The position numbers were made by a program, and so were the translations under genes. This document shows, one piece after another, positions 1,680-62,866 of a stretch of DNA of 64,000 nt. Numbering within the stretch: the first letter of the stretch is position 1; the number at the start of each line of letters is the position of its first letter. The DNA is from an uncultured Candidatus Poseidoniales archaeon (lineage in GTDB: Archaea > Thermoplasmatota > Poseidoniia > Poseidoniales > Thalassarchaeaceae): positions 25,352 through 89,351 of the forward strand of contig CAZUBQ010000002.1 in the NCBI GenBank assembly GCA_964618995.1, given 5' to 3'. The notes below the pieces were generated by a model that ran no database searches, was not told the DNA's origin, and saw only the letters and a list, made by a program, of their open reading frames with translations.

Positions 1680-3605
1680 TCACAGCCGGTGCTTGGCGCG
1701 GGCGAGTCTTCCAGGGGAACCAGAGTACTCCCACGCGGCGGCAAGCGAGCGGGCGGTGCCGAGTAGGCCTCCGTCACGCAGTACCAACACGTCATCACCG
1801 ACACGAATGTCTCCCTCGATGCTGTCGACCATCGGACCGAACACGTCACCTTTCCAATCAGGGCCGGGCTGCAGGTGGACGCGACTGAGTGTATTCGTGT
1901 CCGCCAGCAGAGGGAGACTCGCTTTGGCGAAGGCGAAGCGGCCGGCGCGCGGATGCCATTGTGCGAACTGCTCGTCAGCGACGAATATCTTCCATTCGGG
2001 AGGACGTCCGACCACCTTGGCGTCAGTAAGCCATTCGTCTGTGCCGTGGAACCAGCGCGACAGCGCGCGGAACTTGTCTAGCAGATGCTCGCGCTCACTC
2101 ATGCGCTCTCCTGAGTGATAGCGCTCTGCAGCGTCGTCGCTAGCCTGCTGCAATCTGGTGAGCGCAGCTTCTGACCCGGCTGTCTCTCCTAATCGGGTGT
2201 CGATTACCTCGACGCCGGCGTCGATGTCGACGCCAGAGTGGTTGATGACAAGTTCGTAGCCGATGCGGGATACTAGCGCACGTACGAGTCGGGTGATGTC
2301 CTCCAGTTCGGATGAGTTCCAGTCACCGGTGACCGGGATGTCGTAATGTGCGGCCGGCCAGAGATCCTCGAGCTCCCGGGGAACCAGACCGAGCGGAGCA
2401 GTTACCATCACCTCGTGCAGGTTTCTGTGTCTCAACGAACGGCGGAAACGCCAGTGAGAGTTGGACAACCGATACGGTTTGCGCTCACTGCATGGGAGCA
2501 GCACCAGCACCTTCGACTGCGTAGAAGGGGGGGTGTGAACATCCTCAATGCGCTGTATCCAGTCGGCGATGAGCGCGTCGTTGGTGCTGTTAGCAGAATT
2601 ACACCGCCAGCGTCTCCCGTCAGGAACCTTACGCGCCAGCGGGGGCGAAGGAAGGAGCGTGAGTGTCTGCTTATCCTCGGCTGTCAGTTGCTCGCGCTTC
2701 GCCGCTGATTCTCCCAACGAGGCTCGCATCAGGCGGTCATGGAACCTCAGATGCTCCACCAACCTCGAACTGTTCAGCGCTCGGCGCTCCACCAGTTCCC
2801 GCAGCGTCCCATCCCTGATCGCCTGGCGCACGTTGGCCAGTTCATCCACCCAAGCCGCGAACTGCCTGTCCATATCGGTGGACTCCTCGAGGCTGGCATC
2901 GGCTCTCCGAGGACCTGAGGAGGTGAGCAGTGCGCCGGCTGAGGCGGCCTGTCTGCTCCGTCCGAAATCGTGCAGATCGACTCCGAACCATGTCAACAGA
3001 GCGAGATTGTCAGGGCCTGACAGCCCAGGGCACCAGATGAGCGACACCGGGTGACTGGTGCGCAACACGGCTAGTGCACGCACAAGCCGGCCGGGGTGCT
3101 GTGCCAGTTGCAGCGCATCTGTAAGCACCAGAACACCGGGAATCGTCTGCGGATCGGCGAGCACCTCGTCGTGTAGCATACGTTGCCAGGAGACCGGCAT
3201 GACCTCACCCACTCCTGCGTGGGCGAGTCCGGAATCGGCGGTGGCGAGCGATGGCGGTAGTGTGTGACCGAGTGTGACACGCCATTCAGGAGCGGGGTCC
3301 TCGAACGGATGGGCTAGCGGAGCGCGGGCGCGCAGAACGAGTTCGGCAGGCAGGGAACTGGAATCGTGAGCGGAGACAAACGGCGCCAAGGCCACCGTCA
3401 GCGAATCACCTAGGTCGCTGATGTCGGCTTCAGAGGCGATCATACAGGGTGACTGCGCCGCTGACGACTTGCGATCACCCAACGCGATGATGCGTGCGTG
3501 GCGCATACGGTCCGTGACCGTGCGACCTAGATGCTGTTCTGACACGATGCGGCGACCTGTGCGCCATAATTGAACGATTCTATAACCGGCGAGCGGCGCG
3601 CGCAA
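1680..3605 (-). CDS. arcS: archaeosine synthase (ArcS / tRNA-guanine transglycosylase-like protein with C-terminal PUA domain); probable start at ~3506 (MRHARII)
   Basis: Contains LPCSERKPYRLSNSHW, which matches the strictly conserved ArcS motif PC-x3-KPY-x2-S-x2-H. A C-terminal PUA-like region is present (…GDIRVGDDVLVL…). The size is consistent with ArcS. The track's N-terminal ~33 aa would collide with the divergent neighbour. Confidence 0.75.
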   Translation of the reverse strand: MRAPLAGYRIVQLWRTGRRIVSEQHLGRTVTDRMRHARIIALGDRKSSAAQSPCMIASEADISDLGDSLTVALAPFVSAHDSSSLPAELVLRARAPLAHPFEDPAPEWRVTLGHTLPPSLATADSGLAHAGVGEVMPVSWQRMLHDEVLADPQTIPGVLVLTDALQLAQHPGRLVRALAVLRTSHPVSLIWCPGLSGPDNLALLTWFGVDLHDFGRSRQAASAGALLTSSGPRRADASLEESTDMDRQFAAWVDELANVRQAIRDGTLRELVERRALNSSRLVEHLRFHDRLMRASLGESAAKREQLTAEDKQTLTLLPSPPLARKVPDGRRWRCNSANSTNDALIADWIQRIEDVHTPPSTQSKVLVLLPCSERKPYRLSNSHWRFRRSLRHRNLHEVMVTAPLGLVPRELEDLWPAAHYDIPVTGDWNSSELEDITRLVRALVSRIGYELVINHSGVDIDAGVEVIDTRLGETAGSEAALTRLQQASDDAAERYHSGERMSEREHLLDKFRALSRWFHGTDEWLTDAKVVGRPPEWKIFVADEQFAQWHPRAGRFAFAKASLPLLADTNTLSRVHLQPGPDWKGDVFGPMVDSIEGDIRVGDDVLVLRDGGLLGTARSLAAAWEYSGSPGRLARAKHRL

Positions 3606-5876
3606 TGCATGCGCAGCACATCCGGGGCTTGTACGCTTCTGTGCTTGCTGCTGTTATCATCAGTGATGTTCGCGGTCCCTCCACAACCCCCCACCGAACC
3701 AGATAGGGAACTCACCTCACCAATGAATGCACAGACCGTCCTGTTGATTGACGCTCAGCAGGAGGTGAACTGGTCGATTGAGGTGCGCAGTGGCCCGTTT
3801 TTCGTGGCGGTCGATTGCTCGGCTGGAAGTGGCTGCCCTCAGACCACTCTGACAATCACAGAGGCGGGAGGGAATACCCATCAAGCGACCGAACGGTTCC
3901 GTATCGAGTTGTCCGGCAATCTCAGTGCAGGCACCCACACGCTGAGCATCAGCCGTGATTCATCCTCCGGTGACCTGTCGCTCACGCTGACCACCATCTG
4001 GCTCGACCCCATGGGAGGTGAATTCCTCGACGCGCCTTCTGTCCTGCCCGATCCGGGTAGCGATGCGAGCGCCTGGCCCGTGCTGTCCGCTGTGGGATGC
4101 GGGAACTACACAGCATGCGGGGTCACAGACAGGGGAGACATTGGTAGCGCATCGAGCTGGTGGAACGGAAGCCTGGCAGATGTCGATGATATTGACAGCC
4201 TGCTGCTTAACGGAAGCGAGGGCGACGTGTTCGAGTTCGAACTGGTGGCACATTCGACCGAGGTGACCATCGAGATCTGGAATCGAACCGATGACGACCT
4301 GCAGATGCTCTCGAGCATAACCCATGGCCTCGCACAACTCCCTGAATCGGATTCACGCCAGGTTCTCAGCCAACCTGTAGAAGGTGAACTGTGGCTGTTG
4401 CTAATCACCGCGGGAGGTGAAGGTGGAATGTACTCGCTGAACGTAGCGAGACATGTAGCGGGCCTAGAATCAGAATCCGGCGACCTTCCCGGAATTCCAT
4501 TCCTTTCACCAGAGCACACAACGGGGGTGGCAACATCAGGCCATCTGGGCTACGAAGACTACGCTGGTGACATGCTCAGATTCCCAGCCGGATCCCGCTC
4601 GCACATCCGCATCGAATGGACGAGCAGCGCGCCATGTGACCTCAGTCTGCATGTGCACAATCTCACATGGGATCTGTTCACCACGTATCCGTCGTCTGTC
4701 GGCTCCGGTATCGATATCGTTCTCCCCGAAGGAACGGATGGATTCTCAATCGGATTCGACAACCAGTCGTCTGCACTGATCTGGACGCTGTCGGCGACCG
4801 ATCTCGGACCACATGATGCAGGATATCTTGGTGATGCCACCGACCACCGCCCTACCGGAGAGGCTGCGGGAGCGGCGATGCAGGAACACACAGGATCCAG
4901 CGGAACAATCTCTGGCAGCCTGGATATCGTCGACCAGCGCGATGTCTATCTCATCGAACGGGAACTCGGATTCCCCGACCGCAGCTGGTTCTCAACCACG
5001 CTGGAATCAGAACCCGGCTGCTGCCGGGTGAGCATCGAGCAACTGAACACATCGGCGTACATCGGTTGGACGACAGTGGATAGCAACACGAGCGACTTGG
5101 TAGGCATGAGCACCAGTGTCGGCCTCGAATTGGATCACGGACGGCATCTTCTGGTGGTGGAACCGGTCGGCCCGCTAAATGAGCAGGTGGAGTACACCTT
5201 GTTGTGGGGCTGGGCGACACCGGAAGTAGAGGAGAACGATACAGATGGCGAATGGCAGGACCTGTCGGGAGACTTTCGGAATTTCTACATCCTCGTGGGA
5301 GTAATGTTTCTCTCCCCGTGGCTATTGATATTCTACTGGAGGTGGCAGGACCGCGGAACCCTCCGGTTGGAGGTACACGAGCGCAAACGATTGGCGCGCC
5401 TGCGCGAACGGCTGGTGGCGGCTGATGTGGACGATACCGAGGACCCGCACGCGCTTGAAGACGCACTGAACTCGCTGGCGGACACAGACTGGGAGGCGCT
5501 CATCTTGGAGTGGGGGGAGCCAGTGGTACGACATCTGACGGAGGGCATAGATCTCGCATGCTGGCGGCTTGAGAGCAACGATGACTCGGCACGGCTGGCA
5601 GTCGGAATCAGCACCGGTTCGGATTCATGGACCCTCGCCGCGCTGCGCTTCCAGGCGATCGAGGGGGCAGAATGGAAGGTAGGCACGGTCGTTCCCGAGG
5701 CAATGGCAGAGGGGGACGAACTGTTCCTCGGTGAATTATCGGCGAACAGCGACCGCTTCCTGAGAGTTGACCTCGAAGGCAGCGCGGAGGGTCTCGACAT
5801 CCATCTGTCCGGATTGGTTGGCGGTGAACCGATTGCCGCCATCCCGACACGCGCGGTGATGCTAGAGGAGGAGTGA
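3570..5876 (+). CDS. single-pass membrane protein with a large acidic ectodomain and a ~230-aa cytoplasmic domain (receptor-like); probable ATG start at 3609
   Basis: Signal-peptide-like MRSTSGACTLLCLLLLSSVMFAV, then a ~540-aa Asp/Glu/Ser/Thr-rich region. One TM helix (FYILVGVMFLSPWLLIFYW) is followed by a charged RxR stop-transfer and a C-terminal soluble domain. The track start at 3570 is a TTG. Confidence 0.5.
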   Translation: MNDSITGERRAQCMRSTSGACTLLCLLLLSSVMFAVPPQPPTEPDRELTSPMNAQTVLLIDAQQEVNWSIEVRSGPFFVAVDCSAGSGCPQTTLTITEAGGNTHQATERFRIELSGNLSAGTHTLSISRDSSSGDLSLTLTTIWLDPMGGEFLDAPSVLPDPGSDASAWPVLSAVGCGNYTACGVTDRGDIGSASSWWNGSLADVDDIDSLLLNGSEGDVFEFELVAHSTEVTIEIWNRTDDDLQMLSSITHGLAQLPESDSRQVLSQPVEGELWLLLITAGGEGGMYSLNVARHVAGLESESGDLPGIPFLSPEHTTGVATSGHLGYEDYAGDMLRFPAGSRSHIRIEWTSSAPCDLSLHVHNLTWDLFTTYPSSVGSGIDIVLPEGTDGFSIGFDNQSSALIWTLSATDLGPHDAGYLGDATDHRPTGEAAGAAMQEHTGSSGTISGSLDIVDQRDVYLIERELGFPDRSWFSTTLESEPGCCRVSIEQLNTSAYIGWTTVDSNTSDLVGMSTSVGLELDHGRHLLVVEPVGPLNEQVEYTLLWGWATPEVEENDTDGEWQDLSGDFRNFYILVGVMFLSPWLLIFYWRWQDRGTLRLEVHERKRLARLRERLVAADVDDTEDPHALEDALNSLADTDWEALILEWGEPVVRHLTEGIDLACWRLESNDDSARLAVGISTGSDSWTLAALRFQAIEGAEWKVGTVVPEAMAEGDELFLGELSANSDRFLRVDLEGSAEGLDIHLSGLVGGEPIAAIPTRAVMLEEE

Positions 5877-10828: not shown

Positions 10829-10916
10829 CCGCGTCACCACCAGCAATCCAGCGCGCGGGCGTGTAGGCAGGACATAGATTATCGCTGGCAAGGAAGGAGA
10901 ACCAAGTGGAGTTGGG

Positions 10917-12397: not shown

Positions 12398-15300
12398 TCA
12401 CTCGTCACCCTTGCCAGTGAACCAACGGGCAGCGCGTTCTAGTTCATCGGCGTTGAGGTAGTTGTTACCTTCAGAGTCAAACGCCACCGCGTATGTCAGG
12501 AATGCTTCGCGGTCGGCGATTCCGTGCTCGGTCATCGCCCGTTCGAGTACCGCTTCAGAGAAGTTCATCTTCGCCAACGCCGCCTTCCCTTCCTGCTGCT
12601 GCACCTTCCAGGCCTCCACCTGCTCATGCGTCCACCCCTTCGCCAGCAGTTGAATGTCAGTCCAGCCCTCCGAACCAGATTGTGTGGCCACATCACCCGA
12701 ATCCTGAGAAATCCCACCTCCCGGTGGAGGGGGTGGAGTCGCTCCGACGGGTATCGAGTTCGGATCGAACCCTTCAGGTGGTGCCGGGGCTTTCTCTGGC
12801 GGAGGGGCGTCGGGATCGAACCCTTCTGGTGGAGGCGGAGGAGCGCTCATGTCAGCGATGACGTCAACCGTCTGATCGTGAGTGGAACCTTCGGGTTCCA
12901 ACCGCCCGAGATTGCGATTCATCACGATGAGCACGACGATGACGATGAGTGCAACCATCAAGGAGATGTAGAGCACAATCGGGCCAATGTTATCGGTGAA
13001 CTGCTGGCTCATCGCGGCCGCGTCGCGTGCTACTGGGGGCTGGAGAATGAGCGGGTCGATAGAGATCCTATCGAGCACCACATGTCCGTCACGGACAACC
13101 AGACGGTAGCGTTCGACGGTCTCCTCCTCAACCTCATCAGTTTCGATGACAATCTCCCCGATGAAGCCTGCTTGTGGCCGCAGTGTCACCTCTGTCGATG
13201 CGTCCTCGACATCGACCCATACGCCGTTGCCTATCTTCCTCTGGAGAGCGAAGGTGAGGTTGCCCTCCTCGTCATTTGAATTGGTTCCGATGATCGTCAA
13301 CGTGACCGGGTCACCCGATTCAGGAGTAGCGTCCGACCAACTGATGTCCGTCTCAAACAGGTCTACGTCCGGGCCGACGCGAACGAGGCGCCAGGTTTCG
13401 AGCGGAGTTGCCTCAGTGTTGTTCTCTGACACATACGGATTTCCGGCAGCATCTGCACCTGTCACCCAGACATCCACCAAGTATCCCGGAAGAAGTTCAG
13501 TCACCCCACCGTCGGTGATGTCGATGGTGTCGGTCCAGTGTCCGTATCCGTACTGCTGCAACAAAGTGCGCAACTCGTAACTGCCACGTGCTACTTCCGA
13601 CTCGCCAGCACGCACGATGTAGTGCAGCACTGCCGGTCGGTTGGAATCGAAACCTGAGGCGTCGCTGGTGTTCAGGAACACCACAATCTCTCCAGCGTCA
13701 GTCAGAGGGATGTCTCCGGAGGGAAGAATGGAGTTGATTACTGGCAGAACGCCATCCACCTCGAGCAGGATGCGCGGCGGCTCAGGTGTCTGGTCAGTCG
13801 CCAGTCCAGGAAGGTTCTCCAGCCATGCGAACATGTCGAGGTGACCGCTACGCACGTTCGGGACGAGGATGTCGACGGTGAACTCCCCACCCTCGCGCGG
13901 CACTGCTCTCCATTCGAGTTCTAGGTTTCCGACGACGATGTCGAAAGCGCCTTCAGGCGCAGGTGCGTGGTCCTCGCTGAACAGGATGCGTCCGTTGACG
14001 CGGACGACCTGTCCGGCAGCGATAGTCCGTTGCTCTCCCTCCTCATTGTACAGGTTCTGGCCGGTGGCCAGATCGATGGCTGTGAAGTGACCCGGGTCGA
14101 GGTCGAAGCGGAGGTCATTGTCGAGGCTCCATTCGTCATTGCCCAACCCACCTCGTTCAGAGAAACATGGCTCCAGTGTTTCCGCGTAACAGGGCCAGTC
14201 GGATACTTCAATCACGGGAATGTAAGTGGACAAACCATCGGTATCCATCTCTTCCGGGAATTGCCATGTCAACTGGAAGCGGATGTTCAGGTCAATGATT
14301 GACTCATTGCCATCGACCAGAGTGTAATCGCTGTAGAGATTGGACACCGCTAATCCAAGACCCCCCGATTCAAGATACATGTCGAGAGTACCGTCCTCAA
14401 GTTTGGTGAAGTTGGCCCAGATTGAGCTCTCTGACTCGCTCAACTCGCCATTGAGAGAAATCTGGACATTGGAGATATCGTTCCAACCGTTACGATCGAC
14501 CACCCTCAGCCGCGCGATGTACTGCGTACCGGGATGCAGTGGTGCCTCGTCGTCGTGTCCAACGATCGTCGAGTTCTCCGATTCCAAGTATGGTTCAAAC
14601 TCCTCACGGATGTGATAGGTGACCAGGTCAGCTTCCCAATCAGGTTCCTCCTCGTTGAAGCCTACACCGCAGGGGTCAGCCTCTTCTGAACACACGGGAC
14701 CTCCACCCATCGCCAGCGCGTTACCCTGAGCATCCGCCCCCTCGATGTAGAGAGATACCTTCTCTCCATGGTGGTTCACGTTGTCCTGGATGAGCCCCTC
14801 GAAGATGTTCAAGCCGCCGGGTTGCACCTCGGGCGTGTTCAACGTCAGGTAACTGTACTCATTCCAATCGGGTATGCCATCGTAATCGAGGTCATGTTGC
14901 CCTTCGACCCAATAGCGCAGGTCGAGTTGTGTTGGCGGATCGACAGAGTCCTGCACGACGATGCGAATCGGCTGGCTGGGTGTGCCCTTGTGCACCTCAT
15001 CGCCATCAGAGGGCGTCGCGCCGATTACGAGCGGACTGTTGCCGTCGAGCACCAGTCGTACCGTGTTCCAACCCGGATTGACGAACTCTGAGTTGTTGAC
15101 GAGGCTGACCGCCTTGATGCGAAAGAGCATACCGCCCGGTGACGACTCGACCGGGCTGACAATCGTGATTGAGTACTGCCCGTGGGACGGATTCGGTTCG
15201 ATGTGGAACTGCTTCTCCGGCTCCATCGGTTCCCCATCCATTGTCAGGTTCTGGCCGGTCAGTTCCAGGCTGAACTGTCCTGCCTGTGGAGAGTAAGCCG

Positions 15301-35630: not shown

Positions 35631-35699
35631 GTTCACATACTCCTGATGTGAGCGGCCGATGGAGGGACTGAATATAAGCAAGAAGGCTCGACGCAATAG

Positions 35700-35790
35700 T
35701 ATTTGTATCAATTATCACTGTTTGTATCAATATTTTCTCGCTAATTTTCCTTACACTGTATCAATTTCAATGAAATGTATCAATTATTAA
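35700..35790 (-). promoter_or_regulatory. AT-rich upstream regulatory island with four direct copies of TGTATCAAT (candidate transcription-factor binding sites) upstream of the beta-helix giant gene
   Basis: Copies at ~35704, 35723, 35757 and 35776, arranged as 19-bp-spaced pairs 53 bp apart. Local GC is ~28% versus ~62% for the window. A TATA-like CTTATAT lies ~45 bp upstream of the ATG. Confidence 0.5.
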
Positions 35791-49144: not shown

Positions 49145-49211
49145 GAGGCGATTGAACCTTCGTACAGCGTGCGGCGGCGAATTGATGGTGCGAGTCTATA
49201 TCGGAGGGGCA

Positions 49212-50933
49212 ATGAACCCGAAGACCAGCCCCCTGATCATCTGCCTGCTGATGCTCTCAATGCTCTGTTTACCCGCCCCTCCAGCGGAGGCGACCGGACC
49301 GCCCGGCGGAAGCGATGCGATCAACATCACCGAAGACACGACATGGGACGAAGCCGGCAGCATCGACCAGCAACTGACCATCTCCGCCGGCGCGACACTC
49401 ACCATCTCCAGCGACATCCAGGTCGGACCAGCCACGAACATCGTGGTCTCAGGTACGCTCGACCTCGACGGCGGCTCACTCGTAGCTACCGACCCACCCT
49501 CCGACCTGCAGTGGTGGAACGCGGGAGAAGCCTCCACCCTATGGCTGCCGACGGATGAGGTCAGCGGCAGCGGCGCGATCATCATCATCAGCGCTGCGGG
49601 TTACAACCTGTCTGGTTTCACGGTGGCATGGGGGGACGGAGCCTCCGAGCAGATGGACGGAGAGCAGCACGAGATTACCCTCAACTCGTTCCCGAACGAC
49701 GGAGACTGGCTCACATTCGAGATGGAGATCGGCAGTTGGGGTGAACTGGTGCTGGACAGGATCGAGATCAGGACCGCTTCCACCATCCCGTTCGAAGCGG
49801 CGGATCTCGACGGGTCGGGTTGGGTGCTGCGTGGTGATTTCGGATTCTCTCTCGGCGTCGCCGACGGGGGGTCCCTAAGCGCCACCGATGCGGAGATCAT
49901 GGGGGCTGATGTCCTGATCAGTGGCACCGCAGTGGGACAGAATAGTTGGTTCAAGCGCTCGGGACCAGTGAATGTGATGGGTGCACAGTCCTCTCTGACT
50001 TGGAACGGAGGGGGTTTCGACAGCACACTCGATGACCATGACGTGCGCGCGGACGGTGTGGCCGCGCTCTCCTTCACAGGCGTGACCGACAGTGGAGGAT
50101 TCGTCGACCTGTGGGAGAGACAGATTCCAGCACAGGTTCTCCATTTCCCTGGAAGTGGGGCTCAATTCACTTTGAATGGGGTCGGACCGAATGCACGTAC
50201 CATCCCCGGCATCAGCACGGCGGAGGGCATATCCAACGTACCCGGAGATGATGGCCCGACCACTCGTGTCGTGGAGATAGGTCAGTCCGACGGCACGGTC
50301 TGGACCGAGAGCGCCACGATTGACAGCATCTCCTGGTTCACCGCATGGGGGACGTACACGAGTGATGGGATTCCACTGACTCACTCATCCGACGTGGTAG
50401 TCGATTTCCCGCTGCCATCGGTATCCATCTCGCAGGTGGAGATCGAGGATGCAGCACCCACAATCGGAAGGAGGGCATCGGTCACAGTCACACTGGAGAA
50501 TACTGGTGAGGTCCCAGCCAACGTTCCCATCGAGTGCTATGATGGAGCCGAGCGAGCGGACATCTCCCCTACATACCCGAGCGCCACGGTCGGTGCTGAC
50601 TCGGAGGCGGATATCGACCTGAAATGGGGCCATACAGGAACTGGTAATTCCACCCTGACCTGCTCTCCGATGTTGCCCACGCAACTCACCCGCGACGGTG
50701 CCTTCGGTGGCGGCTCAGGTGATTCGACCGTGGTCGTTTGGGAGGTGCAGCAGGAAACGGGGATGGACCCGATTGTGATCGCACTGATCGTCGCACTCGT
50801 TGTAGGAGTACTGCTCGTTGCCGGGTTCGCCAGCATGCAGGCTCGCGAGAGCATGGTGAAGGCCGAGGAACCTGATGACATCGAACTCGTCGAACTCGAC
50901 GATGAGCTGGAAGAACTCGATGACGACGACTGA
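49212..50933 (+). CDS. surface protein: Sec signal, ~540-aa Gly/Ser/Thr/Asp-rich ectodomain, one C-terminal TM and a poly-acidic tail (track start 49098; ATG candidates at 49185 and 49212)
   Basis: Signal MNPKTSPLIICLLMLSMLCLPAPPAEA. TM IVIALIVALVVGVLLVAGFA. Tail EPDDIELVELDDELEELDDDD. Confidence 0.55.
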   Translation: MNPKTSPLIICLLMLSMLCLPAPPAEATGPPGGSDAINITEDTTWDEAGSIDQQLTISAGATLTISSDIQVGPATNIVVSGTLDLDGGSLVATDPPSDLQWWNAGEASTLWLPTDEVSGSGAIIIISAAGYNLSGFTVAWGDGASEQMDGEQHEITLNSFPNDGDWLTFEMEIGSWGELVLDRIEIRTASTIPFEAADLDGSGWVLRGDFGFSLGVADGGSLSATDAEIMGADVLISGTAVGQNSWFKRSGPVNVMGAQSSLTWNGGGFDSTLDDHDVRADGVAALSFTGVTDSGGFVDLWERQIPAQVLHFPGSGAQFTLNGVGPNARTIPGISTAEGISNVPGDDGPTTRVVEIGQSDGTVWTESATIDSISWFTAWGTYTSDGIPLTHSSDVVVDFPLPSVSISQVEIEDAAPTIGRRASVTVTLENTGEVPANVPIECYDGAERADISPTYPSATVGADSEADIDLKWGHTGTGNSTLTCSPMLPTQLTRDGAFGGGSGDSTVVVWEVQQETGMDPIVIALIVALVVGVLLVAGFASMQARESMVKAEEPDDIELVELDDELEELDDDD

Positions 50934-52097
50934 TTAGCAAGCCTCAGTCGGCTTGTAGGGCTCACCTGTTTGAGGGCCTTCGCCATCGGGGTCCGATGTG
51001 TCACGCTCCTCGTTGTAGTCCCATGAAAACTGGTACCCTTGACTGGCTGTGCCACTGAACACTTCTCCGAATGGAGTATCATGGGTTACCGTGATCTCGA
51101 TGGTGTAGCACCCATCACCATCGTAGAAGTCGGCTCGTGGGATGTAGTTCTGCATCACACCGAAGCCATCCAACTTCTCGCCATCACCGTCGAGATCGAG
51201 CCATGCGCTCTCGACCAGACCACCACCCCCAGTCCAAGTGGCGGTTGAGCCATCAACTGTGACGGTTGGGAAAACGAAGACTTCTGAACCTTCGAAGTCG
51301 ATCGTCGCTTCGATGGTGTAGTCCGAGTTGACGTGGAGCATCATGCCGGTTGTGTTGCTGGTCACCGGGTCCTCCACGCCCGCGCCTACGCGCAGCGACG
51401 CGCCGAGGTGATCGAGGCCGTTCTTCGGGCACTCACCTGTTTCCTCATCACAGGTGGTTGCTTCCGTCAGAGTGGAAAGTTCTCCGTCGACCGCGGTGAT
51501 GGTGCGATCCATGATTTCCGGAGATATCGGGTAAGCGCTGGCAACCGAGCCGCCCTGCGTCACCTCGATTGTATAGTCGATATCGGTCAGATCGCTGGCG
51601 GCCGCACGGGAATTGCCTTGGTAGAAATCGCTGAACGGAATCTCGTACCATGACAGTTTGTTCTTCGGCGTGAACGAACCGTTGTACGCCACGACCTCTC
51701 CATATGTGATTCTCACCTCTAGTGGGTCGTCAGGCGTACCCCCAAGCATCGGTGTGCCGATGAACATCTGCACTCGCAGCACATCGTCCGACTCATCGAC
51801 CTCGACGGCGGACACTGAGATCGAGTACTCCCCCAAACTGAACCCCATAGCCATCTGGGCGGCGATGAACACAATCAGCAGAACAACGAGGCCTGCAGCG
51901 ATGCCTTTCTTGGCATTCGATGAGAGAAAGGACGATTCTTGACCAGTACTCCTTGACGAATCCGCGCGAGCCAGCAGTCCACCCGAATCGACGACTTGTG
52001 TCGCTTCCTCGACATCAGCGTCATCGTTTACGTCGGGAGCGACTACATCCTCGTCATCTTGGATGTCCTTTGCCTTCTCGAGCAATCCCCCAGACAC
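50934..52097 (-). CDS. type II membrane protein: acidic N-terminal cytoplasmic region, a signal-anchor and a ~280-aa ectodomain
   Basis: DDEDVVAPDVNDDADVEE N-terminal region. TM GLVVLLIVFIAAQMAMGF. Beta-rich Thr/Gly ectodomain. Confidence 0.5.
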   Translation of the reverse strand: MSGGLLEKAKDIQDDEDVVAPDVNDDADVEEATQVVDSGGLLARADSSRSTGQESSFLSSNAKKGIAAGLVVLLIVFIAAQMAMGFSLGEYSISVSAVEVDESDDVLRVQMFIGTPMLGGTPDDPLEVRITYGEVVAYNGSFTPKNKLSWYEIPFSDFYQGNSRAAASDLTDIDYTIEVTQGGSVASAYPISPEIMDRTITAVDGELSTLTEATTCDEETGECPKNGLDHLGASLRVGAGVEDPVTSNTTGMMLHVNSDYTIEATIDFEGSEVFVFPTVTVDGSTATWTGGGGLVESAWLDLDGDGEKLDGFGVMQNYIPRADFYDGDGCYTIEITVTHDTPFGEVFSGTASQGYQFSWDYNEERDTSDPDGEGPQTGEPYKPTEAC

Positions 52098-52203: not shown

Positions 52204-53151
52204 TCACAGTAACGGTTCGGGCGGTTCCGCCCCAATGAACTCAGTATAATCCTCTTCCACACGGCGACGATGGAGGACAGCAGCACCCAAGGCGAGCATC
52301 GTCATCCCTGGAATGACCTCGAATCCAGGAAGGTAGACACCGCGCACGTAGAGCGTCACCATCTGCGTCTGGTAGTTGGCCACACCTTCTGTGCGTACCG
52401 AGAACTCACTGGTCGCCTTGAACTGCAACTGGTAGTAGTGGTCCGACCAGCCCTGCTTCTTCGGGGTGCGGATCATCACGCGCATCTTGTCCGGAGGGGC
52501 CTGAGGCTCAATCTCGGTGCTGATTGCAGGAAGTGTGATCTGGAAGTCGGCGTCCTCGAGGACGTCGCGGTTGGCAATCTCGATGTTGAAGCGGTCGTAG
52601 GCGTTACCGTCGTTGTAGACCTTGAACTCGAAGATGTAGTCGACCTTCGGCCTGAGTTGCTTGAATGGTTCCTCGGCCTCGACACGCAGTCGGCTGTACT
52701 GCATGATGGTCACGAGCGCGTTCACGGTGTTCGAAGTGCAGGACGGGCAGGCGACGCCGTTAGCGGTGTCCACGGTCGCTGAGACGGTCACGGTACGGCT
52801 TCCTTCCGCCATTCGGTCATCTCCGCGAACGACCACCTCGAACACGGCGTCGTCATATGCTCCGACGATCACCGAACCGGGTGCGGCGAACGAAAGTCCA
52901 CCTGCTGTGACTTGGATACGCACCTTCTCGGTGTACTGTGTCGGGTTGGTAGCGGTACAGAAGGTGGTGCCGACTCGCGTGGCTCCGGGGTAGACATCAA
53001 CAGGAATCGAGGCTGGCGAGCAAGCTACGTTGATCTCTGGGTTCGGGGAAATCCCCTGAGCCGAGACTGAGCCAGCAGCACCAGCCCACAAGCCCAGGAC
53101 ATACACAAGCATGAGGAGGGACATCCTCCGAACAGCACTTCGATTCATCAT
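52204..53151 (-). CDS. secreted Cys-containing surface protein with a C-terminal TM (paralog A of a tandem pair)
   Basis: Signal LLMLVYVLGLWAGAAGSVSAQG. Conserved C...P...V.V.PG...GTT.CT.TN...Y.E.V.I.V. C-terminal IPGMTMLALGAAVLHRRR plus a short tail. Confidence 0.55.
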   Translation of the reverse strand: MMNRSAVRRMSLLMLVYVLGLWAGAAGSVSAQGISPNPEINVACSPASIPVDVYPGATRVGTTFCTATNPTQYTEKVRIQVTAGGLSFAAPGSVIVGAYDDAVFEVVVRGDDRMAEGSRTVTVSATVDTANGVACPSCTSNTVNALVTIMQYSRLRVEAEEPFKQLRPKVDYIFEFKVYNDGNAYDRFNIEIANRDVLEDADFQITLPAISTEIEPQAPPDKMRVMIRTPKKQGWSDHYYQLQFKATSEFSVRTEGVANYQTQMVTLYVRGVYLPGFEVIPGMTMLALGAAVLHRRRVEEDYTEFIGAEPPEPLL

Positions 53152-53259: not shown

Positions 53260-54300
53260 CTAGAAATCGTCTAAGTCGAGGTCATCGAGATCCAGGTCAT
53301 CATATTCATCGTCATCGAAATCGAGATCGTCGTCGTCGAAATCGAAGTCATCGGCCGCCAGGGAGCGCCGGTTGGATACCAGTTTGACCACGACGACGAT
53401 TGCACCCACGACAGCCAACAGCAGGAGAATGCCAGCCACTGAGACAGCCCACGTTGGCACACCCGCCACCGAAAGAATGAGTTCCTGCTTGGCGACGGTC
53501 TCCAGCCGGAACACATCGTTGATCGTCCACGAGTTTCCTTCATCCACGCTGTGTTGGCTGGTTGCGGTGATCTCGACCTCGAAGATGCCGTCACCCACGT
53601 CATCCGTGGTCGTCACGGTCAGCGTTACATCGGCAGTGGCATCCGCCTCCAATTCAAACGATGAAGAACTGAAGGAGAACTGTACTCCGAACTGTTCCAA
53701 ACCACTCCTATTCACGATATCAAGGTTGATGGTGTCCTTGTCGTTACCCTCGTTCTGCACCTTGAACACTATCTCTCCAGACTGACCCGCGTCGAGCAGT
53801 AACTCCTGCGGATTTATGACCAGCCCCGGCCTTCCGAATTGCTGTATGGCCACAGTTACTCGGAAAGTCTCCTCGGTACAGGTCGGACATGCAATCCCAC
53901 CAGTGATCGTTTGGACGATGGCGTTGATGTCCGATTGGATGTTATTCGCGGGGTCCCCCAACTCAGCGCGATAGACCACCTGGAAGGTCGCGTCACCATT
54001 GGGTGGAACATCGACTTGCTCTGGAGCGGCATACACCAAATCGACCACATCGACTGTGATGTTCACCTCTTCTTGGTAGATGGAGTCGTTTGTCAGGGTA
54101 CACGTTGTGGTTCCCGTGGCAGGGCTGCCTGGAGCCACCTCGACGGATACCTCAACTGGAGTGCACTCTATTTCCACGCCAGGCGAGAGTTGTTGAGCCT
54201 GTGCAGCCGGGATGGTCCCCAAGAGCAAGAGCAGAGAAAGCAAGGTGAACACCCATGTGTGCTCACGCCGAGGAACTGTTGCAATGCTTGACTGCACCAC
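53260..54300 (-). CDS. secreted Cys-containing surface protein with a C-terminal TM and an extreme poly-Asp tail (paralog B)
   Basis: Same N-terminal module as paralog A (ECTPVEVSVEVAPGSPATGTTTCTLTNDSIYQEEVNITV). TM, then a DDFDFDDDDLDFDDDEYDDLDLDDLDLDDF tail. Confidence 0.55.
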   Translation of the reverse strand: MVQSSIATVPRREHTWVFTLLSLLLLLGTIPAAQAQQLSPGVEIECTPVEVSVEVAPGSPATGTTTCTLTNDSIYQEEVNITVDVVDLVYAAPEQVDVPPNGDATFQVVYRAELGDPANNIQSDINAIVQTITGGIACPTCTEETFRVTVAIQQFGRPGLVINPQELLLDAGQSGEIVFKVQNEGNDKDTINLDIVNRSGLEQFGVQFSFSSSSFELEADATADVTLTVTTTDDVGDGIFEVEITATSQHSVDEGNSWTINDVFRLETVAKQELILSVAGVPTWAVSVAGILLLLAVVGAIVVVVKLVSNRRSLAADDFDFDDDDLDFDDDEYDDLDLDDLDLDDF

Positions 54301-56699: not shown

Positions 56700-58721
56700 C
56701 TAACCGCCGGGTTCCTTGTTGTCCGATGTCTGCTCGAGTTCCGCGTCATGCGGGGCGTCATCTCCACCCATCGGCCATAGGCCGGCCTCCTGCCAACCAC
56801 CGTGCTTCTGCCTCGCGTTGGCGACCATCAGCCCGGTGATCACCACTCCGATGAGCAACAGCAGCACCAGCGCTGCGAGGAAGAACACCAGACCGGAAAG
56901 CCCACCCGCGTCATCGGTGACAGAGATTGGTTGTTCACCCATCACATGGAGGTGAACCACAGCGTTGGTCGAGGAGTTGTCGTCCTTGATAGCGCGCAGC
57001 ATGATCGTCTGGTTTCCCGTCAGGTTGTTACCCGGCAGGTAGCGCAGCCGGTCGAGCAGCATCTCATGAGTCACTTCAACCGAGGTCTCTCCCGGTTCGT
57101 AATGCGGGTGGTCGGACCAGTAGTCGCGCATGTCCCATGTGCGCCACTGGATCTTCATCGGACCACCCAGAAGTGAGAAGACGACGCCTCCACCCGGGCC
57201 GATGTGCACCTTGTTGTCTCCTCCTATCTCGCTCACCAGTGATACGTTCATCGCCAGCGTCAGGCCGTAGACCTCGTTGGCCGCCTCCATCACCGCGGGA
57301 ACCGCCTCCACCTGCCCATGGCCGTAGACGTTGTTCTGCCGATTCTTGGGGATGAGATCCTCTACACAAGGCTCGTTGGCGGCCATATAGATGCACAAGC
57401 GATAGGTCGATGTCTCCTGCATGATGTTGCGCACATCGAACGGAGAAAGGTCGGGATTCGCCTGGTACATCAGCGCCGCCACTCCGGCGGCTCCAGGGGT
57501 CGCCATGCTCGTGCCGGACATCGCGGTGTAGCCGGTTCCGGTGTTGGCCTCGACCGACATCACGCTGCTGCCGACGAAGGCGATATTCGGCTTGATGCGC
57601 CCCTCCTCGGTCGGCCCTTGACTGGAATAGATTGCGATGGCGGTGTCCTTGTCGAGCGCCCCTACGGTGACGACATCCTCCGCACTCCCTGGTGTGCCAA
57701 TCTGGAATGAGACGGCGGAGTTGCCCGCGGCGATGAACAGCGAGATGCCGTTGCGCACCATCTCGTTGGCCATCCTGTTGACGCTGTCCTCCTCGGATGC
57801 GGTGAACTCTGACAGGCCCGGACCGCCGAGGCTCATGCTCGCCGCCCGGATGTTGAACTCATGCCGGTAGTCAACCGTCCACTGCATCCCACCCATGACC
57901 TGAGCAAAAGAACCCGACCCGCTCCCGCTGAGAACCTTCACCCCCACTAACTGCGCCTGTGGTGCCACCCCGATGTGCTCGTAGGTGGGTGCACCCGTGC
58001 CTGTGGTGATGCCCGCACAATGGCTCCCGTGTCCATGGTCGTCATATGGCTCGACATCGCTGCCGTTGACCTTGTCAGGGTTGTTGATGGCGTCGTAGAA
58101 GGCGATGACCTTCGGGTCGTATGTGCTGTTGTCATCATCCAGATCATCGATTCCCGAGTGATTGCCATCGATGCCGGTGTCGATGATAGCGACTACTGAG
58201 CCCGCGCCCGTGTAGCCGGTGTCCTCCCAGACTGTGGTGACGCCGTGCACCTCATTGACATCCTCCATGGCGATGGTGAGGATGCCATCCAGTTCCACCA
58301 TGACGACTCCCGGCAGGTTGGCCAAGGTACCCAGCCTGCTCACCTCGACGGGGCCGGCGAGAGCATCGATGAGCGGGAAGCGCCATTCAGTTTCGAAATT
58401 GACGTGGTCGGCGAGCATCTTCTCGTCTGCGGCGCTCGGTTGATGGTCGAAATCAACGATGACCCCGATACGCCCCTCGTCATCCACCCAGTCGTGCAAT
58501 TCGCTGGCAATCGCTATCGGAATCGCATCGGAGATGCCGTCACGGTCGCGATCCATGTTCGTAGTCTCCCACCACGGCTCCTCTTCGACGTCCGTGGGCA
58601 GTGGTGCCACTTCTGGCGTGACCGCCGCACCTAGGCTGGGCAGGAACAGGAGAGCGAACACCGCAAGGCTCGCCCACAGCATGCGGATGCGGCGCGATAC
58701 GTCACTACGACCGTCAATCAT
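56700..58721 (-). CDS. subtilisin-like serine protease (S8) with an N-terminal Sec signal, a C-terminal TM anchor and a short cytoplasmic tail
   Basis: AIIDTGIDGNHSGIDD (Asp), DDHGHGSHCAGITTG (His) and GTSMATPGAAGVAALM (Ser) are canonical S8 motifs. Signal MLWASLAVFALLFLPSLGAAV. TM GLVFFLAALVLLLLIGVVITGLMV. Confidence 0.8.
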   Translation of the reverse strand: MIDGRSDVSRRIRMLWASLAVFALLFLPSLGAAVTPEVAPLPTDVEEEPWWETTNMDRDRDGISDAIPIAIASELHDWVDDEGRIGVIVDFDHQPSAADEKMLADHVNFETEWRFPLIDALAGPVEVSRLGTLANLPGVVMVELDGILTIAMEDVNEVHGVTTVWEDTGYTGAGSVVAIIDTGIDGNHSGIDDLDDDNSTYDPKVIAFYDAINNPDKVNGSDVEPYDDHGHGSHCAGITTGTGAPTYEHIGVAPQAQLVGVKVLSGSGSGSFAQVMGGMQWTVDYRHEFNIRAASMSLGGPGLSEFTASEEDSVNRMANEMVRNGISLFIAAGNSAVSFQIGTPGSAEDVVTVGALDKDTAIAIYSSQGPTEEGRIKPNIAFVGSSVMSVEANTGTGYTAMSGTSMATPGAAGVAALMYQANPDLSPFDVRNIMQETSTYRLCIYMAANEPCVEDLIPKNRQNNVYGHGQVEAVPAVMEAANEVYGLTLAMNVSLVSEIGGDNKVHIGPGGGVVFSLLGGPMKIQWRTWDMRDYWSDHPHYEPGETSVEVTHEMLLDRLRYLPGNNLTGNQTIMLRAIKDDNSSTNAVVHLHVMGEQPISVTDDAGGLSGLVFFLAALVLLLLIGVVITGLMVANARQKHGGWQEAGLWPMGGDDAPHDAELEQTSDNKEPGG

Positions 58722-58798: not shown

Positions 58799-59869
58799 GT
58801 GTATGTCAGCATGCGCCCGCGGACGCGAACGGCTCCGTCGTCGATGGAAACCGGTTCAGCAGTGCTCGCGCTGCTGCTGGCCCTGCTGCTGTTCCCACTG
58901 CCCACGGCCAGCGCTGCCTCCTTCCGACTGGACGAGCCAATCTACCATAGCGGTGACGAGTTCGTCTATGAAGGGTACACAGTAGAACTGCTCAACCGTC
59001 TGCGAACCACCTGGGAGAGCGACGGCGACCTGCTGAGCGTAGAGGTAACGGCCTCGGAGGAGTTGACCGTGAGTCATCTCGGTAGCGAGGGCTGCAGCAT
59101 CCTAGGCTGGTCGGGTGACTGCGACCGAGCCCGGATCAGCCACTCTGTGAACGTCACCATCACTTGGGTGGAGAACACTACCGCGTTCACCAATGACACG
59201 CTGAACATGTCCATCGTGCATACTGCTGACCACTGGAAGGCGCGCGGTACCCATCGTTACGAGAAACTCGCTGCCGTGACCAACACCGAGACCTATTTCT
59301 CGGGCGGCGGTGAGGACAATGTCCTCGAACACGAACTTCGCAAGACAACCCAAACGGAGCGAGTGGGAGACTGGCCAGATGTCGTCGAGGTGCGAAGTTC
59401 GTGGGACGTGGAGATGTCCGAGACATCGAACGTGACTGAGCGCACACGGGAGAACAAAGGTCCGTGGTCGGAAAGTTGGCGGGACGAGATGAACACGCAG
59501 CAGGTGGCCTATCGAGCACTCAACCTGACGACGGTGCACTACGGAGTGGCCAACGAGAAGTCGCATGACACCATCATCATCCGCCGCGACCATCTGGGTG
59601 ACAACCTCACCTTCCACGACCACTTCAGGGAGGAGGGGTTCCTCGCTCGCACTGAGATGTACGATGGGGAGACCCTGCTGCTCTCCACTACATTGGTGGA
59701 GTACAGTTACTACGAAACAGAGCCGCATTCGCTGACCAGCAGCTCCAATTGGATGTTGCCGACGATTTTCGTCGGGCTTGTCGTTCTGGCGATTATCGCC
59801 GCCGGTGCTGCCTTAGCTGTCGTCAGTAGCGCACCGCGGGCTCGAAATCCTGAACAAGATGAGCCATGA
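58799..59869 (+). CDS. surface protein: signal peptide, ~300-aa ectodomain and one C-terminal TM
   Basis: Signal AVLALLLALLLFPLPTASA. TM PTIFVGLVVLAIIAAGAALAVV. Tail SSAPRARNPEQDEP. Confidence 0.5.
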   Translation: MYVSMRPRTRTAPSSMETGSAVLALLLALLLFPLPTASAASFRLDEPIYHSGDEFVYEGYTVELLNRLRTTWESDGDLLSVEVTASEELTVSHLGSEGCSILGWSGDCDRARISHSVNVTITWVENTTAFTNDTLNMSIVHTADHWKARGTHRYEKLAAVTNTETYFSGGGEDNVLEHELRKTTQTERVGDWPDVVEVRSSWDVEMSETSNVTERTRENKGPWSESWRDEMNTQQVAYRALNLTTVHYGVANEKSHDTIIIRRDHLGDNLTFHDHFREEGFLARTEMYDGETLLLSTTLVEYSYYETEPHSLTSSSNWMLPTIFVGLVVLAIIAAGAALAVVSSAPRARNPEQDEP

Positions 59870-61211: not shown

Positions 61212-61282
61212 GAAGCGAGCGCCGTCTTGAAGCACAAATGGTCCTCCCTGACGTTTAAGCCACCATTCGTCATAGCGCAGCC

Positions 61283-62866
61283 ATGAGCAAACTGTGGGCG
61301 ATGTTCTTCCTGAGCATCCTGCTTGTGAGTGTGATGAACTTCTACGCAGAGGTTCGAGAACCCGACCGTGTGGACATAGCCGAAATCCACGAGCACATAC
61401 GTGAGTCGGTGAAAGTGCAGGGAGTGCTGACATCGTACGTACGCGATCCGTACTCCGATGGGTCAGACCGAATCGACCTACTGCTCGAGGATGAGTACAA
61501 CGTCGTGGAGATTCGCTGGACCGAGACCGGCATGCGCCAATCTGGCCGTGATGATGGACTTCCGGTGACCCTGCCGCCAATCGGAACAGTGGTCGAGGGA
61601 GTGGGGGAAGTCGTCGAATGGAACGGTAAGATATGGATTCAATCGCAGGGCGCGGGTGCCATCACCTACGATGCCAGTTGGGTGCCCGATGTTCACGTGC
61701 TCGACCTGACAGCACTTTCGCACAGTCCGAGTAATTACGCAGGCGACCTGATCACGCTCACTGGCTACGCCGGCGGAGTCATCGAAGCGAACATCACCCG
61801 TCAGACCTTCTCGCTGATGGATTCGCCCTCGTACAGCAACGCTGACCACATCGTGTCCGTATCGATGGAAGGGCGACTCACCCAGGCGCTCGAATCAGGC
61901 AGCAAGATCACAATTACCGGATGGCTGCGCTGGGACGAACGCTCGTTCCGCTGGCAATTGCAGACCCACGCCACGCAGATCGAAGTTCTGTGGGCGGCGG
62001 GAGCGAAGCGACTCTCATGGAGCTCGGACGCAGTCTATTGGTCGTACGATGTGGGTGCGTTGGTCACTCTGGAAGGGACGAGTTCCAATCAATCGGACGG
62101 TTGGTGGATTATGGGTCCGGGAGACGCGGGCGTGAATCGACTCTGCCTGCTGCCCTCACCTACTGACCAAGACGGTATCACACAGGACTGGACCGGCCGG
62201 CTGGTGTGGGAGGAACAGAAGGTGCAACTATGCCTCGACCACGGTTACGATGCTGAGTTCACCAACCCGACAGGAGAAATCGGCGAGGGTATGGTACCTC
62301 TGGGAGATGTGGTGCGCGACCCGAATGCGTATCGCAACCAGACGCTGAACTTCGAAGGTTGGAGCACCGACCCCATCTCTCCTGACTACAACAAGGGCTA
62401 CTTCGCCGACGGGCCTGACTACTTCACCCGCTCCACGCGCGTGCGCATGGTTCTCGAGGGTGCCCGGGCTGAATGGCTGGAAGCCGACACCATGGTGCGC
62501 ATCAACGCAACAGTCGTTTGGGATACTGCAGACGCACGTCTCATCCTACAGGTACACGCAATCACGGTCGTTGGGCCAACTCCCAACCCAATCACACTCT
62601 CCTGGACCGAGGGTTTCGATGACTGGCAATGGGACATCAACAAGCGGGTCAAAATCAGCGGTATCGCAACCAACGGTTCCAACGGAACGTTGTGGATTGC
62701 TCGCGAGGGGAGCGCCATCGGTGAACGACTCTGCCTGCTCGGTGACGGAACCGAACTTACTGCGCAGACCGCGGCAGGCTCGCAACCGCTTGACTGGGTA
62801 GGCCGGTTGACCACCGAAGAGAACGTGGCCGACCGAGAAGTGAAACTCTGTCTGGACCGTCGTTGA
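61283..62866 (+). CDS. secreted protein with a signal-anchor and four internal ~120-aa repeats (OB-fold/BOF-like?) carrying a recurring (R/K)LCL(L/D) motif
   Basis: N-terminal LWAMFFLSILLVSVMNFYA. Repeats end in ...NRLCLLPSP, ...VQLCLDHG, ...ERLCLLGDG and ...VKLCLDRR. Confidence 0.5.
   Translation: MSKLWAMFFLSILLVSVMNFYAEVREPDRVDIAEIHEHIRESVKVQGVLTSYVRDPYSDGSDRIDLLLEDEYNVVEIRWTETGMRQSGRDDGLPVTLPPIGTVVEGVGEVVEWNGKIWIQSQGAGAITYDASWVPDVHVLDLTALSHSPSNYAGDLITLTGYAGGVIEANITRQTFSLMDSPSYSNADHIVSVSMEGRLTQALESGSKITITGWLRWDERSFRWQLQTHATQIEVLWAAGAKRLSWSSDAVYWSYDVGALVTLEGTSSNQSDGWWIMGPGDAGVNRLCLLPSPTDQDGITQDWTGRLVWEEQKVQLCLDHGYDAEFTNPTGEIGEGMVPLGDVVRDPNAYRNQTLNFEGWSTDPISPDYNKGYFADGPDYFTRSTRVRMVLEGARAEWLEADTMVRINATVVWDTADARLILQVHAITVVGPTPNPITLSWTEGFDDWQWDINKRVKISGIATNGSNGTLWIAREGSAIGERLCLLGDGTELTAQTAAGSQPLDWVGRLTTEENVADREVKLCLDRR

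Follow-up and report, generated by a model that had tools for sequence, protein, structure and literature searches.

Organization of the locus and topology of the surface proteins

The window analyzed here, a stretch of 64,000 nucleotides (contig CAZUBQ010000002.1, positions 25,352 to 89,351), belongs to an uncultured marine archaeon of the lineage Thermoplasmatota; Poseidoniia; Poseidoniales; Thalassarchaeaceae (Marine Group IIb, MGIIb) and has a G + C content of 56%–61%. It contains a cluster of genes for surface proteins, labeled A to I in Table 1, eight of which are predicted to cross the membrane once, near the C-terminus, and to end in a cytoplasmic tail. The tails of B, C, E, F, and G are each conserved within their own family, and no motif is common to all nine tails. 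On balance, we think it probable that these are bitopic surface proteins with stop-transfer anchors and family-specific, retained cytoplasmic tails, with no common sorting tag.

For the topology, the long open reading frames (ORFs) were translated and scanned for hydrophobic segments (Kyte–Doolittle, threshold 1.6), and the printed termini were inspected. In proteins A, B, C, E, G, H, and I, a hydrophobic, signal-like stretch stands at the N-terminus, and just one strongly hydrophobic segment lies close to the C-terminus; in F, the C-proximal segment is shorter and weaker and falls under the threshold. The architecture put forward in a preliminary description of this DNA (signal, ectodomain, and a single C-terminal transmembrane [TM] helix) holds for eight of the nine ORFs that it listed, but not for D, a polytopic STT3/AglB oligosaccharyltransferase (OST), and its count of at least 10 such proteins comes down to eight with a signal and a single C-proximal TM, plus the OST. 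The ORF at 18012–23759 has a signal and, in the hydropathy scan, no C-terminal TM, while J and the second subtilase have the opposite topology.

Basic residues directly follow the TM in eight of the nine proteins, forming a positive-inside flank. The attributes of a type I bitopic protein (signal-like segment, single C-proximal TM, and net-positive inner flank) are found together in A, B, E, F, G, H, and I; C deviates by its acidic inner flank and D by its many helices. In D, Pfam scans give STT3 (4.8e-16) and CarboxypepD_reg (1.4e-17), and there are more than 20 hydrophobic segments, the last of them 14 residues from the end and followed by the basic tail YRRVRSGMTGAAPF (net +3). This protein is about 3245–3271 amino acids long (3245 in the public gene call), with a long extracytoplasmic C-terminal extension that includes the CarboxypepD_reg domain and the terminal TM. 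Neither Pfam nor NCBIfam scans returned a known family for A, E, or J. The second subtilase begins with an acidic, Pro-rich cytoplasmic tail of 71 residues containing GGWKEA, before its one TM. J also has an acidic stretch at its N-terminus, so that acidic cytoplasmic stubs are not restricted to C-termini.

Table 1. Surface-protein genes of the window with the predicted anchors and tails of their products (window coordinates; aa, amino acids)
Gene	Product	Position	Strand	Anchor and tail
A	Signal-bearing surface protein	3609..5876 (ORF 3570–5876)	+	TM 5283–5339; 178-aa C-terminal cytoplasmic region 5340–5873
B	1825-aa surface protein	12398..17875	-	TM 12923–12979; 174-aa tail 12401–12922
C	~1466-aa surface protein, Big_7 Ig domain	31230..35630 (ORF 31230–35711)	-	TM 31470–31526; 79-aa tail 31233–31469
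Second subtilase	S8 subtilase (Peptidase_S8 1.8e-42)	35862..37163	-	N-terminal anchor; TM residues 72–90
D	Giant STT3/AglB oligosaccharyltransferase	37221..46958 (ORF 37221–47036)	-	Last TM 37266–37322; 14-aa tail
E	573-aa surface protein	49212..50933 (ORF 49098–50933)	+	TM 50772–50828; 34-aa tail 50829–50930
J	N-terminally anchored protein	50934..52097	-	Acidic N-terminal cytoplasmic stretch DIQDDEDVVAPDVNDDADVEE
F	Choice-of-anchor T protein	52204..53124 (ORF 52204–53151)	-	Tripartite element 52261–52329; 18-aa tail 52207–52260
G	Choice-of-anchor T protein, tandem paralog of F	53260..54276 (ORF 53260–54300)	-	TM 53389–53445; 42-aa tail 53263–53388
H	S8 subtilase (Peptidase_S8 1e-49)	56700..58721	-	TM 56838–56894; 45-aa tail 56703–56837
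I	341-aa surface protein	58844..59869 (ORF 58799–59869)	+	TM 59765–59821; 15-aa tail 59822–59866

Tails conserved within families

The tail of C runs from an FVEFEE-acidic stretch through DVYAWGK and an Ala/Pro/Gln linker to YPGWQWDAASNQWIPD. The same order (FFFVEFEE, acidic stretch, DPYAW[GA]K, Ala/Pro/Gln linker, [YH]PGWxWDxxxNxWxPD) occurs in 25 of 25 metagenome relatives with 35%–87% identity; the tail matches no Pfam family. The end motif of C and of its relatives (L050–L076) resembles a Trp-rich hairpin.

In B, a Pro-rich linker with PPPPxGFDP repeats leads to a GWTD..L.A.GWT..QV..W motif, in which GWT is duplicated, and an EF-hand-like loop. These motifs are kept in the two homologs P0410 (40% identity) and P0411 (35%) found by BLASTP, the loop appearing in all three proteins as FD[ST][DE]GNNYLN..ELE.AA. 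A moderately confident AlphaFold2 model of this tail shows a helical C-terminal part, with a predicted local distance difference test score of 65–81, after a disordered linker, and a Foldseek search with it gave no PDB fold match at E <= 0.001. A genuine EF-hand was considered and set aside, with Pfam scores of 13–15 bits vs. cut-offs of 25–30 (E 0.02–0.09) and no fold match. The Trp motifs that had been described as GWxxxW thus do exist and are conserved, with C and B each having a motif of its own.

The E tail is poly-acidic and ends in ELEELDDDD; in its orthologs, the acidic tail ends in ELDDLDDL$ in one clade and in RVDRFAxMMDEDED$ in another ($ marks the C-terminus). In G, VPTWA stands ahead of the TM, and the tail starts with KLVSNRR and continues into a poly-Asp run ending DDLDLDDF. 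The G orthologs follow the same plan, [VI]P.WA-TM-K..RR and then a D/E-rich run, with ends such as DDLDLDDL, FGLDDL, or DDFEF. In I, SNWMLPT precedes the TM and the tail ends RARNPEQDEP; some orthologs have longer tails with LDDL-like ends and, in other genera, the order is NGLPAPS, TM, and RSKSE$.

The H tail contains GGWQEAGLWP, in place of which distant orthologs have PEW[AG]PF and an acidic stretch. The tetrapeptide GGW[KQ] has only two copies in the ORFs of the window, GGWQEA (within 56703–56837) and GGWKEA (within 36951–37163). These are the cytoplasmic tails of the two S8 subtilases, C-terminal in one and N-terminal in the other; the copies are not kept in the distant H orthologs.

Conservation of the tail type within a family spans 25%–90% identity in the ectodomain; the G and E tails and their ends can be followed in orthologs down to ~25%–30%. 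The fact that the C, B, E, G, and F tails are each conserved within their own family argues for retained, functional cytoplasmic modules, which are therefore favored over one sorting system.

Length, acidity, and the question of a common motif

Described beforehand as short and charged, the tails are 14–178 residues long (Table 1; about 18–21 in F). The acidity stands for G (48% Asp/Glu), E (47%), and the first ~25 residues of C (48%, vs. 20% over the whole C tail), but not for A (21%), I (20%), H (18%), B (17%), or D (0%); F has 29%. For reference, the cytoplasmic proteins of the window have 15% Asp/Glu and 10% Lys/Arg, the latter figure being also that of the A tail, and the ectodomains have 13%–17% Asp/Glu. 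Segments of 25 residues with at least 52% Asp/Glu are found only twice in 19,930 residues (29 window ORFs), in the tails of E and G. In the window and the related loci, none of the 114 non-TM ORFs of at least 200 amino acids has at least 40% Asp/Glu in its last 30 residues, the comparison being with 45 ORFs with a C-proximal TM. The poly-acidic tails are no chance feature.

When the TM and tail segments were compared all against all by BLAST, the nine tails had no motif in common, and the matches were hydrophobic or compositional. One motif for all tails is rejected on that comparison; E and G match each other at 1e-5 only with composition correction off. The single alternative sorting logic that had been proposed for these proteins finds no footing in this result. 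Tails without a shared motif were one of the two findings that the preliminary description itself had named as speaking against its proposal (the other being abundant PGF-CTERM proteins and artA elsewhere in the genome), and half of that case is therefore made.

Probable anchoring by stop-transfer helices with retained tails

Type I bitopic proteins with stop-transfer anchors are the classical way in which many archaeal surface and S-layer proteins are held. The proteins of the window resemble them in the N-terminal signal, the large ectodomain, the one C-proximal TM, and, in eight of nine, the basic inner flank. They differ in tails that are unusually elaborate and conserved, with runs of 50%–60% Asp/Glu and a fixed hydrophobic last residue, with W-rich motifs, or with cytoplasmic regions of ~175 residues, and, in C, in an inner flank that is acidic instead of basic.

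The cluster would then consist of surface proteins with Sec-type signals (giant proteins resembling adhesins, a pair of subtilases, and the two choice-of-anchor T paralogs), which a single stop-transfer TM near the C-terminus would hold on the cell as type I bitopic proteins. The tails would stay in the cytoplasm as family-specific modules under selection: poly-acidic with an acidic-hydrophobic C-terminus in E and G, an acidic juxtamembrane stretch with two Trp motifs in C, regions of ~175 residues in A and B, and short stubs in D, I, and H. F is the exception, with a PGF/short-TM/Arg-cluster element of the archaeosortase-signal type and a short acidic extension; across the lineages of its family, one and the same ectodomain is combined with four or more alternative C-terminal anchors. 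We infer that the signal peptides are cleaved and that the tails remain attached, face the cytoplasm, and bind partners there. With the tails conserved family by family, the weaker idea in the preliminary description, namely, that the tails are of importance and might interact with partners in the cytoplasm, stands, while its haloarchaeal premise, its claim that PGF motifs are absent, and its shared logic fall away.

Several points weigh against this reading. Both the signal peptides and the membrane orientation are predicted from hydropathy and flanking charge, and C breaks the positive-inside rule, FVEFEE coming directly after the TM in all 25 relatives. The sequence examined amounts to ~0.7 Mb of Poseidoniales-related DNA around these genes, which is less than a whole genome. 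The signal in F leaves room for processing, instead of TM anchoring, of at least one protein, and the recurrence of an acidic-hydrophobic ending in G, E, and some I orthologs hints at a shared recognition element. Such an ending, as a motif shared by several families, and the handling of F-type and LPAP-type ends by a sortase-type enzyme may both be additions to stop-transfer anchoring that do not exclude it.

A tripartite PGF element in F and its family

The C-terminus of F reads YVRGVYLPGFEVIPGMTMLALGAAVLHRRRVEEDYTEFIGAEPPEPLL. It can be divided into YVRGVYLPGF-EVIPGMTMLALGAAVLH-RRR-VEEDYTEFIGAEPPEPLL, in which LPGF, a short Ala/Gly-rich TM, and RRR form a tripartite element adjoining the last conserved segment of the ectodomain, before an acidic 18-residue tail ending PEPLL. 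Across the 20 relatives of alignment A1, P15, G16, and F17 are invariant, L14 is conserved in at least 90%, and [RK]R is conserved; PGF is present in every complete ortholog inspected (38 GTDB loci and database relatives). The statement that none of the tails has a PGF motif is contradicted by F. After the basic cluster there are 18 residues in F and 4–30 in its relatives (P0103, ending KRYRRDDEE$, has 4), with a conserved end, P..PL[FL]$ or APGL$.

Tripartite sorting signals are characterized by a signature motif abutting a hydrophobic helix, an Arg cluster, an N-terminal signal, and homologs with other anchors (Haft 2023, bioRxiv 10.1101/2023.06.07.544157). F has the PGF signature, a helix abutting it without spacer, and a basic cluster within the range of 2–5 residues, as in the PGF-CTERM/ArtA system of Haloferax volcanii and in Heimdall- and Loki-CTERM. 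It also shares with PGF-CTERM/ArtA the N-terminal signal (MSLLMLVYVLGLWAGAAGSVSAQG, hydrophobic with an A-x-A-like end) and the homologs that lack the signal or carry another (LPxL-type, plain-TM, and acidic-tail anchors). It differs by scores under the cut-offs and by the 18 residues with a conserved end after the Arg cluster; the locus differs by having the signal in one family only and by the archaeosortase gene not being found in the sequence examined.

Three CTERM models were considered, TIGR04126 (PGF_CTERM), NF045529 (Heimdall-CTERM), and NF033507 (Loki-CTERM). F scores 15–18.5 bits on the NCBIfam Heimdall-CTERM model, with the match lying exactly on the PGF stretch, vs. a cut-off of 24; its match to Loki-CTERM is likewise sub-threshold, and it is below every curated CTERM cut-off. 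The C-termini of its family match Heimdall-CTERM in 14 of 20 (best E 1.9e-4), Loki-CTERM in 5 of 20, and PGF_CTERM in 1 of 20 (E 0.96). The remaining eight C-terminal TM segments, which served as an internal control, give no match to a CTERM model below E 0.1, and the eight proteins have no tripartite signature motif.

A regular expression for P[GE]F, a hydrophobic stretch, and basic residues has 29 matches in the ORFs of the window and of 42 loci (~0.6 Mb), all Y[LV]PGF and all in the F family, and the window and loci hold no further PGF/PEF-TM-basic protein outside that family. Scanning them for an extreme C-terminal TM signal of any kind gave nothing but I orthologs from other genera. An archaeosortase gene was found neither among the window ORFs (Pfam/NCBIfam), nor in the 10 kb downstream on the source contig, nor beside the PGF-type relatives.

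F and G are full members of NF041740, "choice-of-anchor T," with 280.3 bits over profile positions 2–259 of 259 and 150.1 bits over positions 3–246, respectively (cut-off 70). NCBI already names the Thalassarchaeaceae orthologs accordingly, and alternative anchors are what the name implies. The two proteins align over the whole ectodomain with several invariant Cys (alignment A2); no PDB relatives of this ectodomain were found. New with respect to NF041740 are the occurrence of two anchor types as tandem paralogs, conserved across Thalassarchaeaceae, and the tally of anchor classes, one of which combines acidic tails with a C-terminal ending that is conserved. The family, a widespread one of surface proteins, is a natural experiment in anchor swapping.

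A profile search with F and G against 1.84 billion (1.84e9) representative proteins gave 910 relatives, and the anchors were counted in the 99 full-length proteins among the best 150 of these. The largest class (24/99) has a TM and a tail with an acidic-hydrophobic end. The extreme C-terminal PGF[DE]P-type signal with TM and basic cluster is found in 19, as is a plain TM with a KKRR-type basic stub, and a PGF-type signal with a longer tail, as in F, in 7. An LPxL/LPAP motif with TM and short polar end occurs in 9, other long tails in 17, and 4 lack a C-terminal TM. Of the relatives with extreme C-terminal PGF-type signals, 10 of 22 match Heimdall-CTERM, 9 of 22 Loki-CTERM (best E 1.9e-5), and 4 of 22 PGF_CTERM. 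The contigs of two PGF-type relatives are archaeal, carrying genes for the archaellum and an A-type ATPase, and neither relative has an exosortase-family gene beside it.

The LPxL/LPAP class matches no curated CTERM model. An extreme C-terminal LP[AS]L/LPAP followed by ~16 hydrophobic residues and an R/N-rich stub forms a second end that looks like a sorting signal, present in two unrelated ectodomain families: in the I orthologs L028, L034, L035, and L041 of other Thalassarchaeaceae genera (NGLPAPS-TM-RSKSE$) and in the choice-of-anchor T relatives P0246–P0251, P0255, P0262, P0295, P0320, and P0359. We regard it as a candidate undescribed sorting signal. Three further relatives (P0276, P0310, and P0331) have tails of 60–80 residues ending in a WW-domain-like DENGYEW....DG.N[WF]YR......W, with no Pfam match; a WW-domain or DUF identity for these Trp motifs and for those of C and H was considered and has no Pfam support.

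A tentative alternative to retention is that F, and its LPAP/LPxL-type relatives in other genera, are archaeosortase-like substrates, in which PGF would be cut, the TM and tail discarded, and the ectodomain lipid-anchored as with PGF-CTERM/ArtA in Haloferax. The position and invariance of the PGF/TM/Arg element speak for it, as do the CTERM matches in the F family against none in the eight control segments, the homologous position in relatives whose extreme C-terminal PGF[DE]P signals match CTERM models, and relatives, such as P0103, with hardly any sequence after the basic cluster. In HVO_0405 of H. volcanii, a Tat (twin-arginine translocation) substrate and strain-specific domain fusion, ArtA processes a non-terminal tripartite signal, centrally located and followed by a cytoplasmic domain (PMC7157517; PMC9263693), and therefore the extension in F does not by itself rule out processing. 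The sequence after the basic cluster is what F has in common with HVO_0405 and is compatible with archaeosortase processing; HVO_0405 belongs to a haloarchaeon with a proven ArtA, whereas for F both the enzyme and the processing are putative. Against such processing stand the best score of F, under the curated cut-off, the single family with the signal in ~0.6 Mb vs. the "many unrelated substrates per genome" of archaeosortase systems, and the search for a PF09721-type or other archaeosortase gene, which found none in the window, in the 10 kb downstream of it, or next to PGF-type relatives. In addition, the conserved end after RRR would be odd in a discarded peptide, and the available literature makes no mention of archaeosortases in Marine Group II (MGII).

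The acidic-hydrophobic C-terminal ending

At least two ectodomain families that are unrelated to each other, those of G and E, have the acidic-hydrophobic ending, and some I orthologs end in a similar way. In the G family, 27 of 28 tails end with L or F in an acidic context, down to 25% identity in the ectodomain. Basic, Pro-rich tails of choice-of-anchor T relatives (9%–16% Asp/Glu) still end in DEFDFL$ (P0259, P0286, and P0296) or LDFDF$, which points to the terminal residues, and not the bulk charge, as the conserved element. Acidic tips that recruit partners are known elsewhere, in the bacterial single-stranded DNA-binding protein (SSB; DDDIPF) and in the ribosomal stalk P-protein (DDDMGFGLFD). 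The likeness lies in an acidic run ending in one or two hydrophobic or aromatic residues at a free C-terminus (DDLDLDDF in G; DEFDFL and FGLDDL in relatives). The context differs, the tails here being those of membrane proteins, and the comparison is one of analogy, with no homology claimed.

At rather low confidence, one may suppose that [DE]-[FL]-[DE]-[DE]-[FL]-COOH (as in DDLDLDDF, ELDDLDDL, or DEFDFL) is a docking or sorting tag read by a putative cytoplasmic partner, with the poly-acidic run as a flexible spacer; the tag would be that of G and E, of some of the I orthologs, and of many relatives in the choice-of-anchor T family. This would account for the G ends, for the ELDDLDDL$ clade of the unrelated E family beside its RVDRFAxMMDEDED$ clade, for the 24 of 99 relatives with this ending, basic Pro-rich tails included, and for acidic ends occurring in none of the 114 non-TM ORFs. 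The tag is weakened by the small number of independent ectodomain families (two or three, orthologs not being independent observations), by a permissive regular expression without a formal null model, and by E of the window, which ends in DDDD and not in a hydrophobic residue. Moreover, the motif is missing from A, B, C, D, F, and H, and acidic repeats of low complexity in which L or F is interspersed can drift convergently.

More broadly, and with still more reserve, Poseidoniales and related archaea might mark bitopic surface proteins with a C-terminal acidic-hydrophobic motif (DDL-COOH or DEFDFL-COOH), in most cases preceded by a poly-Asp/Glu spacer and with a putative cytoplasmic reader, alongside PGF-type and LPAP/LPxL-type signals on the same ectodomain family. 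If so, the reader would position, cluster, or turn over surface proteins, and the motif would parallel, in archaea, the sorting signals in the cytoplasmic tails of eukaryotic proteins.

That the acidic tails have no specific function, being a low-complexity by-product of an acidic marine-archaeal proteome with an architecture that is the archaeal default, is improbable: the proteome is acidic as given above, acidic stubs also stand at N-termini (J and the second subtilase), and ortholog tails vary much in length and sequence, but the poly-acidic runs are confined to the E and G tails, acidic C-termini are missing from the non-TM ORFs, the terminal residues are kept across deep divergence, and the C and B tails have strongly conserved motifs that are not acidic.

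Host lineage and the haloarchaeal premise

The preliminary description took PGF-CTERM/ArtA anchoring, the norm of Halobacteria, as its expectation. The host is a metagenome-assembled genome of a marine Thalassarchaeaceae. With the ORF of F as query (52204–53151), 38 loci were found in GTDB species representatives, the closest 95%–98% identical, all labeled Poseidoniales, Thalassarchaeaceae, MGII, or with a broader archaeal label and none haloarchaeal. Exact-protein look-ups returned PurD and the product of the ORF at 61283–62866 with identical sequence on marine-metagenome contigs. Together with the lineage, these loci and matches rule out a haloarchaeal origin of the window. Since the host is not one of the Halobacteria, the missing haloarchaeal-style use of PGF-CTERM is no anomaly.

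MGII archaea, still uncultured, rank with the most abundant archaea of the plankton. The searchable literature holds no description of how their surface proteins are anchored, MGII genome papers being silent on anchoring. The locus indicates that they depend to a large extent on anchors of a single helix, followed by cytoplasmic tails that are conserved, and that a PGF-type signal exists in the lineage. Should the acidic-hydrophobic ending or the PGF/LPAP-type signals truly be read by machinery, they would offer a handle on the envelope biogenesis of an organism that cannot yet be cultivated. As matters stand, the main yield is the corrected taxonomic premise and an ordinary anchoring mode with unusual, testable details.

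Neighboring genes

Directly downstream of subtilase H lies M (55814–56668, minus strand), a protein of 284 amino acids with eight TM segments and no Pfam or NCBIfam family. M follows an S8 subtilase in 19 GTDB loci, and the gene order H–M–G–F recurs in the larger loci, with a gap of ~1.3 kb separating M from G, where the window has an HD-domain gene. Homologs of M with ~47%–50% identity occur in metagenome-assembled genomes of Myxococcota, Bradymonadia, and Alphaproteobacteria, which suggests a cross-domain transfer. Its conserved residues (GG..GG..T.P.TIVPA and S.FPAIF.T.M..LW) hint at an internal repeat. M, the only polytopic protein without an assignment, was also considered as a hidden archaeosortase and rejected, with no Pfam or NCBIfam match, no invariant Cys or His in 43 homologs, and unrelated genes beside the bacterial homologs.

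Elsewhere in the window, three consecutive genes at 24859–28633 (plus strand) have N-terminal hydrophobic segments and weak matches to DUF7289 or DUF7266, and look like an archaeal pilin-like set (class III signal). In the long ORF at 9764–11437 (minus strand), a Peptidase_C15 (pyroglutamyl peptidase) domain is joined to a NUDIX domain; the first ~200 residues resemble read-through of non-coding sequence, so that the gene probably starts further in, unless the ORF covers two genes. Just downstream of the window on the source contig (L049, 13438–18315), after a TctA transporter, a giant protein of 1625 amino acids carries LTD and PLDc_2 domains, so the surface-protein island reaches past the window.

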